This document shows, in pieces, positions 32,100-62,696 of a stretch of DNA of 64,000 nucleotides. Made by a program: the position numbers and the translations under genes. The DNA comes from Opitutales bacterium (GTDB lineage: Bacteria; Verrucomicrobiota; Verrucomicrobiia; Opitutales; PNEW01). Location of the stretch: positions 992,001 through 1,056,000 of the forward strand of contig CBDANS010000007.1 in NCBI GenBank assembly GCA_965197745.1, in the 5' to 3' direction. The notes under the pieces are model-generated. The model was not told the origin of the DNA and ran no database searches. It saw nothing but the letters and a program-made list of their open reading frames with translations. Each line of letters starts with the position of its first letter. The first letter of the stretch is position 1.

Positions 32100-32491
32100 A
32101 AATCTTCGTCTTCGCTTGCCACGGCGTAGTCTCGCGATCACGAGACGAAGACGGGTCTGCCTCTTCGTCCCTATTGTCATTGCGAGGAGTGAAGCGACGA
32201 AGTAATCCAGGGGGATGTCTGTTGCGTGATCATAGTCCCTTATTATAAGGTTTCACTCAGTAGTACGATTGCTGATCTACATTATACTAAAAGTCATTCA
32301 TATTTCTCAGTAGCTACGATCTGTCTTTACCCCTGTTGTCGCATTGTCTTTGTATAAATATTACTTATTTAATATTTAAATTTAAGATAGGAACCCTTTT
32401 TGGAAAGATCTGCGAGGAGACTGGTGCCCATATGCACAATGACTATTTGCCTGGATTGCCGCGGTCAGCTGATAGCCTCCCTCGCAATGAC
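32100..32491. repeat. Repeat island: family A (32115-32154) plus family E halves (32176-32210, 32451-32491)
   Basis: Direct sequence match to copies at 5497, 52489 and 54755-54856. Confidence 0.8.
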
Positions 32492-54248: not shown

Positions 54249-54980
54249 AGGTGGAACGCGCTGTCCCTAGCGCGTTCGATTATGTTGTAATAAAAGAAGC
54301 GTGCTAGGGACAGCCCGCTCCACCATGGGATGCAAGATTTATGATGTAATATTGATTAATCTTCAGGACGAGGACGAAGATGACCCTAATCAACTATACC
54401 ATAAGGCTCCAGCATGTCGACCATAGCCTCGGCCACGACGAAGCGTGGCCCTCCAGAAATTGTATAAGAGAAAGGGCCAATATGGAACATGCGAGTCCAA
54501 ATGAAATGGAGGGCCACGCTCCGTCGTGGCCGTAACCATCATTTATAATGTGAATAATAAATGATACACATGTTAAAACGGACGCAACGGAGTGCGTCCC
54601 TCCAGAAAAAAAATGGAGGGCCACGCGTTGTCGTGGCCGCTGTGTAGAATGAGCTATAATTCTATATATAATTAAAGTACTAAAACCCTGCCCAGACGAA
54701 GCTTACTGTTTATCAAGATACAAGAATACATCGTTATCATCTTCGTCCCTCTTTTCATTGCGAGGAGTGAAGCGACGAAGCAATCCAGGCGGTTAAGGTT
54801 ACGCTACAGACATTCCCCTGGATCGCCGCAGTCAGCTGCGACTTCTTCGCGATGACAAAAATGGATTGAATCACAGCAAGGGGTGAAGCTCGACATGTCC
54901 AAAATTGCCTATCACCTCAACAGCGCGTTCCACCATGAGTTTTAAGTAATTGAAGAGGCAGACGAAGACGAAGATGATCC
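54249..54980. repeat. Mosaic repeat island: family D (54250-54324), two family C pairs and family E (54755-54856)
   Basis: Direct matches to other copies in the window. Confidence 0.85.
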
Positions 54981-56759: not shown

Positions 56760-57290
56760 AGCTTCGTCATCGTCTGCCTCTTCGTCAACGTCCCTTTAAT
56801 TATTTACAATAATATTGAGGTGGAACGCGCTGCTTGTCCGACATAGTCCCGCCACCGCGGGACGACGGCTGGTCCCTAGCGCGTTTGATTATGTTGTAAT
56901 AGAAGAAGCGTGCTAGGGAACAGCCGTCGCTGTATATTGCTAGGCTATGGCCGTCAGGCAGCCCGCTCCACCTTGGGATGCAGGACATATGATTCAAATT
57001 AGTTAAATGATTCTGGACGCAGACGAAGATTATTATCCATTAACATACCCATTGCTTACGCAGAGGACTAATTATGTGTAGCCCCCTCCCCGGGGTTTCG
57101 TCGTTAAGATAATCATATTTCCAAACGGACGCGACGGAGCGTGGCCCTCCAAAAAAGATTAAATGGAGGGCCACGCTCCGTCGTGGCCGCAAAGAAGCAG
57201 GAAAAAACGAAAAATTATTTTGAAATATTGAATCAGTATTATTTATAAAATCATTCATTTACAGAATAAGAAGACGAAGAGGCAGAACCG
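56760..57290. repeat. Mosaic repeat island: family D with two nested family B inserts, and a family C pair (57125-57190)
   Basis: Aligns with the uninterrupted family D copy at 54250-54324. Confidence 0.85.
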
Positions 57291-57659
57291 ACTATGGACG
57301 GGACTTAGAAATGCCTTATAAGTTGTTTATTAATAATAAATTACACTTAAATAGTGATATTAAAACAATTTATGTTTTCCTTTGATTTCCTGGCATTGCC
57401 TCAAAATGTTTGGCAGGAATGGGCAGGAATCATACTTTTTTTGGGAGGTTCAGCCAGGAACCGGGCAAGAAATTTCAAGCGAATTTAATAATGTCGATTA
57501 AGTTGCACCATGTCATGAAAAACAATAAATTTATACGCCCTGTAGTGGCACCTCCAAATTTCCCGGTGAAGCCGATTCAGTCAGACTCAGATTTAAACCT
57601 CTACAATATGTAATGCTATAATAGCATTTTGATGTGAATTGAACCTGCCCTTATGTAAC

Positions 57660-59010
57660 TGGAGTGACCCCCAAAAATGGTATCATTAACAGAGAGAGGT
57701 TATCGGGATAAACAGATAACCTCAATGAAAAGAAAAAGATATACAACAGAACAGATCATAGCAATACTGCGGCAGCCCGATACGGGCAAAACCGTGCAGG
57801 AAGTCTGCCACGGCAACAACCTAAGTGAACAGACCTTCTATCGCTGGGGCAAAAAGTATGGCAACTTGGAGCTGGCTGATGCGAAGCGATTTAAAGAGCT
57901 GGAAAAGGAGAATACGGAGCTGAAGAAGATGCTCGCTGATCAAATGCTCAAGCTTCGGGTGTTGGAGGAAACGCTCTCAAAAAAATGGTGAGCCCAAAGC
58001 AGAAGAAGCGAGCAGTAAAAGATGCGGCTGAGAAGGGGCTGTGCTCGTTTTAGAGGGCTTGTGCTTATCTCAGCCTCAGTTGGTCAACGTACAGCTACCG
58101 ACCCAAGCAGGCCAGTAAGAAGGCTCAGCAATTGGCCGAGCGGATTTTGACCTTGTCCTGGGAACATCCCCGTTACGGTTACCGGCGCATTCGTGCCTTG
58201 CTGGTGAAAGAAGGTTGGGCGGCAAGCAGGAAATTTGTACAGGCAGTGCGACGTTCTTCGGGCTTACAGGTAAAGCCACCAAAAAAGCGTAGACACCGTC
58301 AGGGGATCTCTACTGGGCTCCCTACTAAAGCAACCGGTCGCAATCACGTCTGGTCCTGGGACTTTGTCCATGATCGTACAGACAATGGCGGTATGCTAAA
58401 GATGATGACCTTGATCGATGTACCGAGGAGCTGAAAGCGACGACACTCAAGCGAAGCGAAGACATATACGCGTAAATGTTTACGCATCCGGGTAGCTCGA
58501 CAGCTCACCTCAACCGATGTTCTCTCGGTACTCAGCGAAACCATCGATGAAGAGGGAGTTCCTAGCTATATCCGCAGTGACAACGGCAGTGTTCCGAGGA
58601 GCGAAGCGACGACATGCGAAGCCATTCATTGCTCATCAGGTGCAGCAGTGGTTGTCCGACAAAAAGATCAAGGCGATATATATCGATCCGGGCAGTCCCT
58701 GGCAAAACGGTTTCATCGAGTCGTTTCACAACCGCTTACGCGATGAGTGTTTGAACCGTGAAGTGTTGCTCAGCGTGGCTGAAGCACAAGTTGTAATAGA
58801 ACAATGGCGTCAGACCTATAACAATGAACATCCCCACAGTCGATTAGGCTTTAAAAGCCCACAAGAGTTTGTCACATTCCTTTCCGCTCTTGGCCGCGTT
58901 CGGGCTACGCCCTCACTGCGCCAAGATCTCTCATATACATCAATCCTAAAACCATTAATACCCGGTAACTCTCTCACATAATAATTGGTACGAAAAACGG
59001 GGTCCAATCA
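57660..59010 (+). mobile_element. IS3-family (IS407-like) insertion sequence, orfB disrupted by two short inserts
   Basis: TG...CA ends with imperfect TIRs (TGGAGTGACCCCC / GGGGTCCAATCA); orfA MKRKRYTTEQII; A7-TGGTGA frameshift site; orfB HPRYGYRRI, WSWDF, SDNG, PWQNG.IESF motifs. Confidence 0.92.
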
Positions 59011-59114
59011 TAAGTGCTTAATAATTAATATAAAGTATTAATATATAAGTGGTTCCAGTGGGAGAGTTGAACTCCTATCCAAAGGCACTATACTTGGATT
59101 TTGTCTAGAGTTAG

Positions 59115-59211
59115 CTACCAATTTTATACCAATATCTACCAATTTGGTAGAATTGGTTGACTTTTTTTGGATTAACTACCAATTTGGTAGATATTGGTAT
59201 AAAATTGGCAG
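59115..59211. promoter_or_regulatory. 36-bp inverted repeat bracketing a TTGACT -35 element upstream of the Fic gene
   Basis: Arms 59115-59150 and 59176-59211 match as reverse complements at 34 of 36 positions; each contains CTACCAATTTGGTAG. Confidence 0.6.
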
Positions 59212-59239
59212 TTATAACACCATACACTTGAAGGACATA

Positions 59240-60583
59240 ATGAGAATCCCACAATCACCAAAGCCTTTTTTGGACATTATTAGTAAAATTAGTAAATCTG
59301 GTCTTGATAAATTTAGGAAAATTCTCTCAGAAGAATCAGAACCTTTAACTGCTGAAGAATACATTCACTGGGATGATCTTCGCAGACGTATCCCCCCCAA
59401 AAACTTGCCTCACGAAGAATGGTGGGCGGCCATAAAATTCAAAAGAATGTCTACTTTAAAAGAAATTCCTTTAAAAGACAAAAAAGGTAACGATTTTCTT
59501 TTTACTACACCTGAAATGGTTAATGAGCAGTTGCATAACATCGATATGTATTCTGGTGGAATGGTTGCAATGGGAGAGCCTATAACGAACCCACAAACTC
59601 GTGATAAATATCTCGTCAACTCACTTATTCAGGAGGCAATTACATCCAGTCAACTTGAAGGCGCGGCAACTACGCGAGAAGTGGCTAAAGAAATGATTCG
59701 GAGCGGTAGATCACCAAGGGATAAAAGTGAACAAATGATATTTAATAATTATTTTACAATGCAACGAATCATTGAACTAAAAAATCAACCATTAAGTTTG
59801 GAACTTATATTTAATCTACATAAATTAGTAACAGATAAAACACTAGATGATCCTACAGCAGCAGGACGATTTCGTAATACTGATGAAAACATATATCTTG
59901 AAGATTCATATGGTGAAACTGTCCATATTCCTCCCGCGGCAGACGAGCTTATTGATAGAATCAATTTGATGTGTAAATTTGCGAATGAAAAGGGGGGGAA
60001 GTATTTCATACATCCTGTAGTTCGTGCGATTATATTACACTTTTGGCTAGCATATGATCATCCGTTTATTGATGGAAATGGGAGAACAGCGAGAGCATTA
60101 TTTTACTGGGCTATGCTTAATAAGGAATATTGGCTATTTGAATACATTTCGATTTCGCAAATTCTGATAAAAGCTCCAATTAAATATGCGCGGTCATTTC
60201 TCCTTACCGAAACTGATGAAAACGATACAACATATTTTATAATATACCAAATAGAGGTAATAAAAAGAGCCATTAAACTTTTAAAATCTTATATTAAAAA
60301 TAAAACTAAGGAAATTAGCGAAACTGAAATATTGTTAAAAGATATAGAATCACTTAATCACCGGCAATATTCAATTATAAGCCATGCTTTACGTCATCCA
60401 CGTCACAGATATACTATATCTAGTCATCGAAAAAGTCATAATGTTGCTTATGATACAGCAAGGCATGATCTTTTGAAGTTATCTAATTTAGGGTTTCTTA
60501 ATCAGAAAAAAATGGGTAAGAAAATATTATTTGATGTTAAAGATAATTTATTAGACGTCATCAGAGATACGTCATCAGAGTGA
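59240..60583 (+). CDS. Fic-domain AMPylase with internal inhibitory motif and C-terminal wHTH-like region
   Basis: HPFIDGNGRTAR Fic motif; SSQLEG inhibitory motif; ATG at 59240 preceded by AAGGA; AT-rich. Confidence 0.92.
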   Translation: MRIPQSPKPFLDIISKISKSGLDKFRKILSEESEPLTAEEYIHWDDLRRRIPPKNLPHEEWWAAIKFKRMSTLKEIPLKDKKGNDFLFTTPEMVNEQLHNIDMYSGGMVAMGEPITNPQTRDKYLVNSLIQEAITSSQLEGAATTREVAKEMIRSGRSPRDKSEQMIFNNYFTMQRIIELKNQPLSLELIFNLHKLVTDKTLDDPTAAGRFRNTDENIYLEDSYGETVHIPPAADELIDRINLMCKFANEKGGKYFIHPVVRAIILHFWLAYDHPFIDGNGRTARALFYWAMLNKEYWLFEYISISQILIKAPIKYARSFLLTETDENDTTYFIIYQIEVIKRAIKLLKSYIKNKTKEISETEILLKDIESLNHRQYSIISHALRHPRHRYTISSHRKSHNVAYDTARHDLLKLSNLGFLNQKKMGKKILFDVKDNLLDVIRDTSSE

Positions 60584-61927
60584 TCGGACCCCGTTATTCG
60601 TACCAGTTTAAGTGAGAAAGTTACCGGGTGTTAATGATTTTAGGATTGATGTGTTGGAGAGGTCTTGGCGAAGTGAGGGCGTAGCCCGAACGCGGCCAAG
60701 ATCTGAAAGGAATCAGACAAACTCTAGTGAGCTTCTAAAGCCTAAAGGACTGTGGAGATGTTCATAGTTATAAGTCTGACGCCATTGTTCGATTACTACT
60801 TGCGCTTCAGTCACGCTAAGCAACACTTCACGATTTAAATATCCATCGCGTATGCAGTTATGAAGCGACTCGATGAAACTGTTTGTTATTCTCGATCTAG
60901 TTCGTTGAAGTGTCGCTTAGCTCTGTAGCCAGGGACTGCCCGGATCGAAATATATCACCTTGATGTTTTGTCGGTCAACCACTGTTGCACTTGATGAGCG
61001 ATGAATGGCTTCGCATGTCGTCGCTTCGCTCCTCGGAACACTGCCGTTGTCACTATGGATATAGCTGAGAGTTCACTCTCTTTCAATGGCCTCGCTATTG
61101 AACAGAGAGAACATCGTTTGAGGTGGGCTGTCTAGCTACCCGGAGACGCAAACATCTACGTGTGTATTCATCGATTAGAGTCATCATCTTTAATGGACTG
61201 CCATTATCAGTTCGATCATGGACAAAGTCCCAGGACCAGACGTGATTGCGATCATTTGCTTTAGTGAGACACTCTGTTGAGACTCCTTGACGATGTCTAC
61301 GTTTTTCGGTGGCTTAACCTGCAGACCCTCTGAACGTCGCACCGTATGAACAAACTTCCTGCTTGTTGTCCAGCCTTCCTTTACGAGCAAGGCACGGATA
61401 CGCCGGTAACCGTAGCGGGGATGTTCCCAGGACAAGGGTACAATCCACTCGGCCAACCGCTGAGCTTCCTGCTGCCCTGCTTGGGCTGGTATCTGTAAGT
61501 TAAACAAGCTGAAGCTGAGATAAGCACAAGCCCTCTAAAACGAGCACAGTCCTTTCTCAGCCGCATCTTTTACTACTCGCTCCTTCTGCTTTGGGCTCAC
61601 CCCTTTTTTGACCGCGTTTCTTCCATTACCTGACTCTTGAGCATTTGATCAGCAAGCAACTTCTTCAGCGCGGTGTTTTCTTTTCCCAACTCCTTAAATC
61701 GCTTCGCATCGGCCAGTTCTAAATTGCCATACTTTTTACCCCAGCGATAGAAAGTCAGTTCACTTACGTTGTTGCTACGGCAGATTTCCTGAACCTTTTT
61801 ACCGGTAACGGCTTGCCGCAGTATTGCGATGATCTGTTCTGTTGTGTATCTTTTTCTTTTCATTAAGCTTATCCGTTTATCCCCATAACCTCTCTCTGTT
61901 AATGATTCGATTTTTTGGGTCACTCCA
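60581..61927 (-). mobile_element. IS3-family (IS407-like) insertion sequence, degenerate and inverted relative to the 57660 copy
   Basis: Ends TGATCGGACCCCG (60581) and GGGTCACTCCA (61927); orfA MKRKRYTTEQII; fragmented orfB with two short inserts. Confidence 0.9.
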
Positions 61928-61929
61928 CC

Positions 61930-62401
61930 TACATGCACACCTTTTCCAACTGAGCAGTCGAGAATTGGAGGCTGAGAGGAGAGATTGCCAAGGCCGTCCG
62001 GCAATTGTGCTACCGGATGCGGGGCTATGATCGGAAAGCAGAGAAGTATGGGGTTATATTCGTATTCAGGACACCACTTGGGAGGGAATCTCCTTTACTT
62101 TCGCTACCGAAGGGCTGACAAACCTGGATGATTATGTGCTGAAAGCCTGCCTGGAAATCGCTGAGCCGCTGCTTGCGCGGTTTTTGCAGAAGGGACATAG
62201 AATTCGTGGTATCGGGCTACATACGATTGAAATGGATGCGACCAACCAGCTTGAACTCTTTTTTCGCGAAGACGAAAAGTTAGCGCGGATGTACTTCGCG
62301 GTGGACAAATCAACAACCGCTTTGGCCTCGACACCATCATGCAGGCTTCCATGAAGTACGCCGTTAAGGGAAAAACTCATTTTCTGGAACGGAATGTTTA
62401 A
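61930..62401 (+). pseudogene. C-terminal remnant of a Y-family DNA polymerase (DinB/UmuC-like)
   Basis: Across frameshifts and one stop it reads MHTF..., LCYRMR, IRGIGL, NQLELF (clamp-binding-like) and AVDKINNRFG; truncated at the IS end. Confidence 0.6.
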
Positions 62402-62696
62402 AGCAATGATCGTTCTTTTTTACTTCGATTGATTATTGAACTGATCGAAAATGTGGCATGATGGTTTTATTTCGCCAGATCGATGCTCTTGTCAGTATTA
62501 CCCTATTTCTTCAGCTTGTCGTTATCTCTCCCACTGGTTTGTAAGAAACGGGTTCTCACGTTAAAAAGCAGCAACATAAAAAAGAGAGGGAGTTTAAGTA
62601 TTTTTTGGTATTTAATAGGCATGAATAATTTCAACTATAGCGCTCGTCTGTAATTTGATAATGGTTAGGTTGGAACTCTAACCTAACCGACAAGTA

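Follow-up and report, generated by a model that had tools for sequence, protein, structure and literature searches.

Introduction

Small dispersed repeats (SDRs) of Nostocaceae, SDR1–8, were reportedly described by Elhai et al. in 2008 (Genome Res 18:1484), and they appear to be the closest published analogue of the subject of this paper, a family of micro-inserts that interrupt the transposase genes of two IS3-family insertion sequences (ISs) in the DNA of an Opitutales bacterium. The two ISs lie in a 64,000-nt stretch of contig CBDANS010000007.1 (positions 992,001–1,056,000), hereafter called the window. SDRs are described as mobile-looking, non-coding repeats of tens of bases that are nested in other repeats (PMC5861425, PMC3116915); the first of these papers adds that SDR5 was inserted at a preferred short sequence, HIP1, and that no SDR was found outside Nostocaceae (PMC5861425). 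The resemblance to our inserts is one of behaviour only, both being small, non-coding, mobile-looking repeats that are nested in repeated or mobile DNA and prefer a short target. The host differs (Opitutales instead of Nostocaceae), the sequences, set apart by description only, are apparently unrelated, and the modules described here are 23–45 nt in length with a two-part build, are associated with a loss of 1–2 target bases, and occupy transposase codons and T-loop-like sites.

Short insertions inside protein genes are also represented by the palindromic elements of Rickettsia (~100–150 bp, in frame) and by the "byp" elements of Magnusiomyces mitochondria, which the ribosome skips by means of matched take-off and landing codons; our inserts resemble both in their location, but neither the in-frame rule nor the codon rule holds for them. 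REPs are imperfect palindromes with a conserved head, which lie between genes and make no target duplication. The REP/REPIN elements and our inserts are alike in being short, non-coding and multi-copy, in a presumed enzyme acting in trans and in the lack of target duplication, whereas our inserts are non-palindromic and lie inside genes. REP and REPIN are short multi-copy non-coding elements thought to be moved in trans by RAYT, a domesticated Y1 HUH transposase present as a single copy (PMC3116915). Ssn nucleases cut single-stranded DNA beside hairpin repeats that flank their own genes, and SRMs are extragenic repeats that get cut, not gene insertions (PMC11893778). The repeat-gene-repeat architecture of small GIY-YIG genes in the genome studied here is like that of the NTS/SRM–Ssn system (PMC11893778), and our inserts share the core of the repeat loop; the inserts differ from SRMs in not being palindromes and in having no match to the published SRM pattern.

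A full-text search of a limited library, which is not proof of absence, found no description of these inserts. Our best reading, held with moderate confidence, is that they are very small (~23–45 nt), non-coding, non-autonomous insertion modules moved by a trans-acting enzyme.

Micro-inserts in two IS3 copies

The two IS copies of the window belong to one family, which we call IS-A, and are ~89% identical outside indels. A prediction made previously from the sequence of the window alone (the original prediction) had named three inserts, and our reading of the window, together with an alignment of both copies, reproduced their coordinates, lengths and sequences (Table 1). The alignment also agreed with the prediction that none of the three is accompanied by a target duplication and that insert 2 is identical at 32/32 positions in the two copies despite their diverged flanks. 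Insert 1 is present only in the left copy, the right copy reading GATG-A-ATAC at that position, and insert 3 only in the right copy, where the left copy reads TGGC-A-AAAC. The insert 3 of the window shows 7/43 differences from the consensus of its site, as counted by eye from the alignment.

Table 1. Features of the window and insertion sites of the family in the source genome
Feature	Coordinates or motif	Strand	Length (nt)	Remarks
Insert 1, site 1 (left copy)	58421..58463	+	43	IDEYTR motif; in-frame TGA; empty allele GATG-A-ATA
Insert 2, site 2 (left copy)	58592..58623	+	32	DNGSEF motif; net +31, frame-shifting
Insert 2 (right copy)	61007..61038	-		32/32 identical to left copy and to genome-wide majority form
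Insert 3, site 3 (right copy)	60885..60927	-	43	PWQNG motif; decayed; in-frame TAA
Left IS3-family copy (IS-A)	57660..59010	+		orfA intact; orfB broken by TAG, insert 1 and insert 2
Right IS3-family copy	60585..61934	-		Old, decayed, unique lineage; flanks of insert 2 at most 83–91% identical to any other copy
A7 run, end of orfA	57979..57985	+		orfB carries on in -1 frame
In-frame TAG in orfB (CSF*RAC)	58051..58053	+		TTG CGG (CSLRRAC) in other lineages
Fic-domain gene	59240..60583	+		PF02661, E 3.7e-17; between the inverted IS copies; context, not part of the element
Site 1, all IS-A copies	IDEYTR		43	Filled in 30/37; net +42; empty allele GATG-AA-TAT
Site 2, all IS-A copies	DNGSEF		32	Filled in 34/37; net +31; empty alleles AGTG-AA/AG-TTC and TCCG-AG-TTT
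Site 3, all IS-A copies	PWQNG		43	Filled in 11/37; net +42; empty allele TGGC-AA-AAC
Site 4, all IS-A copies	LRDEC		35–37	Filled in 9/37; net +35; empty allele GATG-AG-TGT
Antisense site				Empty allele TTAC-AG-TTTT
Hairpin repeat				Empty allele GCGGC-AA-TCCAG

The IS copies have boundaries reading TGGAGTGACC... and ...GGTCCAATCA. The left copy, which falls within a clade of ~16 copies that are ~99% identical, matches Pfam HTH_Tnp_1 at 57725–57988 (orfA) and rve_3 at 58625–58978 (the orfB tail), and its A7 run is presumably a working -1 frameshift site, as expected of the IS3 family. The domain content of an intact copy of the sister family IS-B (L066) is HTH_Tnp_1 (E 5e-20), HTH_21, rve (E 2.5e-22) and rve_3, and this copy has the same layout as IS-A, with orfB in the -1 frame after an A-rich run. 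The inverted IS copies bracket the single Fic gene over 57660–61934 in a composite-transposon-like arrangement; matching outer target duplications were not found.

A family of inserts in the source genome

The source genome (G000 in the coordinates below) comprises 4.45 Mb in 7 contigs, and its inserts form a family with the core CCGAGGAGC(N0-3)AAGCGACGAC. Insert 1 has 25 exact copies (31 with ≤3 mismatches), insert 2 has 51 (73 with ≤3 mismatches), and the insert 3 sequence of the right copy occurs once. This recurrence is not due to chance; a reversed control pattern gave 0 matches. When 37 near-full-length IS-A copies were aligned, all three sites of the original prediction proved to be real, and the family was found to carry a fourth. 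If filled and empty states at sites 1–4 are written as 1 and 0, the copies are distributed over 1100 (n=25), 1111 (n=5), 0110 (n=3), 0011 (n=3) and 0101 (n=1), and none of the 37 is insert-free. The consensus insert of site 3 is open and adds 14 codons in frame.

In IS-B (1318 bp), of which 40 copies were aligned, insert 2 is present in 35 copies, insert 1 in two divergent copies and insert 3 in one. Six IS-B copies carry a 23–25-nt relative of the family on the opposite strand, directly past an A8 slippery run. This antisense site and the hairpin repeats around GIY-YIG genes share a 25-nt subfamily, TACCGAGCG(T)AAGCGACATCT(A/T)CCA. This subfamily, in outline TACCGAG followed by a small hairpin and ACATCTTCCA, lies within the 3' arm of hairpin repeats headed GTCATTGCGAGGAG..., and these repeats bound small GIY-YIG genes and gene-less derivatives of them. 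The family sites of the genome are four fixed sense sites and one antisense site in IS3 transposase genes, and one site in terminal hairpin repeats. A search for further copies of the motif as indels had been proposed with the original prediction; self-comparison of the genome gave 520 indel intervals of 18–70 nt in repeated DNA, and 112 of them were assigned to the family by a motif rule.

Two heads of the GTCATTGCGAGGAG... repeats are found in the window itself, at 32176–32189 and 54754–54767 (+), and both read ...GACGAAG(C/T)AATCCAGG, which is an empty micro-insert site. Another variation was observed in 27/40 IS-B copies (for example G000:C6:188114–189431 and C7:1901266–1902552), in which CTC-GAG-AAG of orfA is replaced by CTC-TTTG-AAG, a one-base gain that places the N-terminal HTH in frame with orfB. 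Two insert-free IS-B copies with this replacement have a single long transposase open reading frame (ORF) for which no frameshift is needed.

Anatomy and junctions

Each module has a conserved 5' part, T(A/T)CCGAG and then GAGC(N)AAGCGAC(GAC)A, which contains a motif of the GCGAAGC mini-hairpin type, and a variable 3' part that often includes a second GCGAAGC and ends in C(A). GCGAAGC, which occurs twice in insert 2, is a published mini-hairpin motif (PMC13037366). The 5' boundary, T(A/T)CCGAG, is constant at all IS3 and hairpin-repeat sites of the source genome and at a site in a genome of another genus (G114), and the two bases before CCGAG are more variable among the metagenome matches listed. 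Rfam gave no match on the inserts when positions 57000–62500 of the window were searched at E≤10. As to the idea that the variable 3' part is a guide or address pairing with the target, no complementarity was seen by eye; no formal test was run.

The target at every site of the source genome is S^A(A/G), mostly followed by T, and 1–2 target bases are lost. The original prediction that an insert replaces one A holds for the filled form, but an element that ends in ...CA and takes the place of AA or AG describes the event equally well, as the empty allele G-AG-TT of site 2 shows. The GAATTC predicted for the empty state of site 2 was confirmed, the empty copies reading GAG TTT, GAG TTC or GAA TTC. 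The inserts were also said to be targeted by sequence, with which the S^A(A/G) rule at all sites, the same codon hit in a distant IS3 (L049) and the T-loop-like GTTC(R) contexts of metagenome matches all agree.

The junctions argue against DDE, HUH and recombinase routes. A miniature inverted-repeat transposable element of a DDE transposon was rejected because neither terminal inverted repeats nor target-site duplications are present at any site; these two absences and the loss of 1–2 target bases bear out the claim that the mechanism is not DDE-like. IS200/IS605-type elements insert 3' of one fixed tetra- or pentanucleotide and have subterminal hairpins at both ends, and an element of this type (PATE) was rejected because no fixed upstream tetranucleotide is found (GATG, AGTG or TCCG, TGGC, GATG, TTAC and CGGC at the respective sites). 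REP/REPIN–RAYT was likewise discarded, because the inserts are not hairpin-stable and lie inside ORFs, and the single Y1_Tnp match of the source genome (C6:163380) is unlinked. Nor do the inserts appear to be integrase scars: a tyrosine-integrase island (L064) joins IS-B ~20 nt downstream of site 3, with no module at the junction. At this locus (G000:C7:1065042–1066385), which lies just beyond the window, the tyrosine-integrase gene (428 aa) directly adjoins an IS-B copy that is truncated.

Occurrence in other genomes and metagenomes

We surveyed 151 sampled Opitutales genomes and found the core in 13 of them, with 100 matches in the source genome, 57 in G002, 14 in G001 and 1–3 in each of ten others; the reversed core gave 0 matches in the same survey. 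In G114, a DNGPEF-type IS3 of another genus (L049) is hit in the same codon by a different variant, with a net gain of +35, and it has little flanking DNA in common with IS-A. The sequence context of a site-3-like variant in G040 is a different one, and no transposase frame is apparent on either side of it. These two contexts, and the occurrence of the 25-nt subfamily in unlike targets, support a target choice that is independent of flanking homology.

In metagenomes, the core was found in at least 122 stretches. Among the 125 matches listed, 39 are at GTTC(R)NN directly before CCGAGG, a T-loop-like context, and 25 of these 39 are followed by a tRNA-3'-end-like ...CCA; a single conserved hairpin holds 31 in its loop, 21 belong to the Opitutales two-unit type and 34 are in other contexts. 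We also considered whether the inserts are tRNA introns and rejected this idea, because deletion of the insert restored a tRNA predicted by ARAGORN at only 7 loci, several of which are neighbouring genes. Since deletion so rarely restores a predicted tRNA, most T-loop matches look like fragments of tRNA 3' ends and not like interrupted working genes. Rfam searches of 20 metagenome loci found only neighbouring or partial tRNAs.

The ~31 listed matches of the conserved-hairpin type (e.g., L068, L083, L119 and L136) share the structured-looking arrangement ...AACCTGCGAGGCG..GGCGCGATTCT, the module and AGAATCGTGACATAGCCGAGTCAGGTTGAAGCAGTTGTTAG, and the sequences on the AGAATCGTGACATAGCCGAGTCAGGTTGAAGCAGTTGTTAG side diverge beyond it, as if a mobile element or a guide-RNA scaffold ended there; two of these loci were without a match in Rfam. 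At another locus (L058, G035:C150), tandem units of ~105 nt have one module each after ...GATTCGAACCGAAGGTTCG.

Filled and empty alleles and the age of the inserts

Site 2 is empty in 5/40 IS-B copies, four of which read GAG TTT and one TAG TTC. Contigs of run X1, a run whose type is not on record, contain the empty alleles G-A-ATAT of site 1 and G-AG-TTC of site 2. The only differences between the filled IS-B copy C6:569271–570587 and the intact empty copy C7:406740 are the insert region, a T>C change immediately downstream of the insert and a single base far away from it.

In an ungapped comparison of 37 lineage representatives, taken from 99 loci in three genomes, the diversity of insert 2 was 0.028, versus 0.24 and 0.33 in the two 30-nt stretches that adjoin it. 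IS-A lineages with identical inserts 1 and 2 have synonymous divergences (dS) of 0.46–0.90 and ratios of nonsynonymous to synonymous divergence (dN/dS) of 0.08–0.16. For the decayed right copy of the window, whose insert 2 is unchanged between far less similar flanks, the chance of such identity is ~0.02 at a flank rate of ~12%. Recent arrival of the inserts is the better reading of these data, because old neutral passengers are excluded and constraint would not act on a dead copy.

A candidate enzyme

The original prediction had noted that no responsible enzyme is encoded in the window, and we found no GIY-YIG or Y1-transposase match inside it; reverse transcriptase was not searched. The source genome has eight GIY-YIG matches, six of which are in open frames of ≤130 aa. 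Four of its GIY-YIG genes, of which one has a TAA and another is clearly broken, lie between inverted hairpin repeats, GTCATTGC-GAGGAG(Y)GAAGCGACGA-AGCAATCC, whose loop equals the module core; the upstream repeat has the module in three cases and the empty form (Table 1) in one. The micro-inserts themselves share only the loop core of the hairpin repeats and sit inside them, and the arrangement around a small single-domain GIY-YIG gene is that of the repeats, not of the inserts. A GIY-YIG protein of 97 aa (G000:C7:1545599–1545889) has a homologue (E≤1e-10) in 8/151 genomes, including the three high-copy genomes, in which the identity is 79–99%.

Because the GIY-YIG genes of the source genome are bounded by hairpin repeats that have the module core and host the same inserts, a small Ssn-like GIY-YIG single-strand nuclease is our best guess for the mover, and a tentative one. 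The link of these nucleases to the modules is weak. We regard as doubtful a wider proposal, in which the inserts belong to a widespread class of the smallest known bacterial mobile DNAs, modules of 20–45 nt that a small hairpin-directed GIY-YIG nuclease of the Ssn type would excise and paste, or copy, in single-stranded form at S^AA(T)(C/T)C sites. Targets of this kind would include the T-loops of tRNAs, loops in other hairpin repeats and, in the DNGSEF motif of IS3, the Glu-Phe codons GAA-TTC. Such a transposition chemistry would be previously undescribed, and in this genome it would silence ISs naturally and provide them with a joint for recombination.

One further small GIY-YIG gene was observed in a tRNA setting (L046, G000:C7:1846203–1846346), between a partial copy of a tRNA-Met 5' half and a complete tRNA-Met(CAT). 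The partial copy stops within the anticodon loop, at a TCCCGCAACTGCGGGA hairpin, and the whole has the form of a nuclease-plus-tRNA cassette.

Active movement or spread by recombination

The anatomy of the modules, the polymorphism of filled and empty sites, the recency of the inserts, the hit at the same codon of a distant IS3 and the persistence of inserts in RNA-library contigs are established by our data. From these we infer that a trans-acting enzyme actively moves the modules, which would enter the same sites again and again. They would enter S^A(A/G) without target duplication, removing 1–2 target bases, and by landing in conserved E or Q codons of IS3 transposase genes they would knock these genes out. 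Filled IS copies would go on multiplying, presumably because the few intact copies mobilise them in trans, and identical inserts would become islands of perfect identity where diverged IS families recombine. The interpretation offered in the original prediction is thus supported, with a mechanism that we infer.

Several points weigh against active movement, or against the candidate enzyme. No new insertion event was observed directly, and the source genome has one variant per site and only ~six primary sites, which also fits a few old events and copying thereafter. The IS copies are mosaic, and homologous exchange could have carried inserts between lineages. The inserts fold no better than shuffled sequences (with standard DNA parameters, most shuffles fold better than inserts 1 and 2, z +1.1 to +1.5, and z is ~0 for insert 3), and the word hairpin, as applied to them, derives solely from the published GCGAAGC motif. 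A homologue of the 97-aa protein is missing from 10/13 module-bearing genomes, namely the low-copy ones, and is present in 5 genomes without the module. Small GIY-YIG ORFs are found in 7/10 module-positive and 3/5 module-negative genomes; co-occurrence of the motif with GIY-YIG genes, a check suggested with the original prediction, does not discriminate. The published SRM pattern has 16 matches genome-wide; none falls on the hairpin repeats or, when both strands and 15 nt of flank are included, on the four window inserts. Cutting is the only activity known for Ssn proteins, and no joining by them is known.

The foremost alternative, which we consider unlikely, is that there were a few ancient insertions, one per site, which later spread by IS transposition and by recombination or gene conversion among ~80 IS copies, the modules being no longer, and perhaps never as a family, mobile. 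The one-to-one relation of site and variant in the source genome agrees with this, as does site 2, which needs one change only on the IS-A tree. The mapping of insert gains on the IS phylogeny, also proposed with the original prediction, could be done with a minimum of 3, 1, 3 and 5 changes at sites 1–4, and these numbers are unreliable because the copies are mosaic. Mosaicism is clear and likewise favours ancient events: compared with the C7:1673280 copy, the left copy of the window has an identity of 98.8% in the part preceding insert 1 and of 88% from insert 1 to insert 2, and after insert 2 it is 98–99% identical to another group of copies, the "90% clade".

Chimeras between the IS families, which point in the same direction, join at inserts 2 and 3. 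The C7:1673280 copy is IS-B-like (93.75%) over the 80 nt between these inserts and IS-A in the remainder, and in the related genome G001 three loci are IS-B upstream and IS-A downstream of insert 2, with one locus reversed; 4/4 inter-family junctions are at or within ~10 columns of inserts 2 and 3. Within IS-A, 17 breakpoints were significant in a maximum chi-square scan; 8 of them fall within 40 columns of sites 2 or 3, and the other 9 lie elsewhere. The enrichment at inserts is only suggestive, and the pairs are not independent. The simplest reading is that the inserts, as the longest perfect matches between diverged IS families, serve as crossover points. In the chimeric ISs G000:C7:1673280–1674707 and L014, L016, L021 and L038 (G001), families that are ~70% identical are joined exactly at micro-inserts. 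Since the IS copies are mosaics produced by recombination, finding an identical insert in two of them is by itself not evidence of two insertions; the identity of insert 2 pointed out in the original prediction is real but does not prove a double event, for which the stronger evidence comes from outside the window.

What speaks for active movement instead is that exchange would have required extremely short tracts. In the right copy, the mismatches closest to insert 2 are 19 nt away on its upstream side and 7 nt away on its downstream side, the nearest lineage markers of IS-B2 (13 nt upstream and 12 nt downstream) are unconverted, and an identical insert stands in IS-A and IS-B between flanks that share only ~71% identity. 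The distant IS3 that is hit at the same codon by a different variant, and one subfamily in unrelated targets, are also hard to reconcile with a few ancient events.

A still less probable alternative is that the inserts are repair scars, in which nuclease breaks at S^A(A/G) were filled from abundant hairpin repeats sharing the GAGGAGCGAAGCGACGA core, with no dedicated transposition step. The loss of 1–2 target bases without duplication, the identity of the module core with the loop of the hairpin repeats in the source genome, and the variable 3' parts with composite or nested structures would all be expected of such repair. The constant T(A/T)CCGAG boundary, however, is hard to get from random filler, even if the bases before CCGAG vary more in metagenomes, and identical full-length variants are found in lineages with saturated synonymous divergence.

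Effect on the transposase genes

The inserts carry stops or shift the frame (an in-frame TGA in insert 1, +31 nt in insert 2 and a TAA in insert 3 of the right copy), and we read them as transposase knock-outs. The only fully intact IS copies found are 2/40 IS-B copies, C7:406740–408025 and C7:1352654–1353939, both of which are free of inserts, in agreement with the original prediction that the inserts inactivate their hosts. Two further IS-B copies without insert 2 have a one-base change that fuses orfA to orfB. The prediction that the inserts are non-coding has also stood, because they bring stops or frame shifts, their net lengths (+42, +31, +42 and +35) are not consistently in frame, and they are kept in contigs of RNA libraries.

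In two metatranscriptome runs, contigs extend through inserts 1 and 2 gap-free, and a single "empty" RNA contig has different flanks (TTTATC) and so represents another copy. This RNA evidence consists of assembled contigs, which a rare spliced form could escape, and RNA libraries can hold DNA. An intron or translational bypass was accordingly set aside on the retention of inserts 1 and 2 in these contigs, a weak argument, and on the lack of a common frame or codon rule; pairing of take-off and landing codons fails at three of four sites.

It is thus very improbable that the inserts are recoding or regulatory cassettes of working transposases, removed from the RNA, hopped by the ribosome or frameshifted through, although such cassettes would account for the multiplication of filled copies and the conservation of inserts. 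Bursts of near-identical filled copies (~16 of IS-A and ~16 of IS-B1) and the low dN/dS between insert-sharing lineages fit this idea, and in our own reading CCG then AGG of insert 2 could be a take-off point with landing on the CCA just before TTC. The net lengths, including +35 in G114, follow no common frame rule, however, and the CCG–CCA pairing fails at insert 1 (ACA in 25/30 filled copies), insert 3 (ACA) and insert 4 (TCA). If an insert were removed precisely, the gene would lack one or two bases, the gap-free contigs show no removal, and the burst IS-A clade also carries a plain TAG. Intact insert-free copies could supply transposase in trans, and the bursts of filled copies would then have been mobilised by these few copies.

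Implications for Opitutales and their insertion sequences

If the modules truly move, they would be among the smallest mobile DNAs, and by their junctions the route would be neither DDE-, HUH- nor recombinase-like. The presence of the core in tRNA T-loop-like fragments and hairpin loops of many metagenomes makes the spread of SDR-like repeats directly testable, since target and element are defined and the candidate nucleases are few. By planting identical 30–45-nt islands in diverged IS families, the inserts provide places at which chimeric ISs have formed in at least two genomes. They explain many annotations of "frameshifted" transposase pseudogenes in Opitutales, and as they silence ISs at catalytic codons, they would shape the number of active IS copies in each genome.

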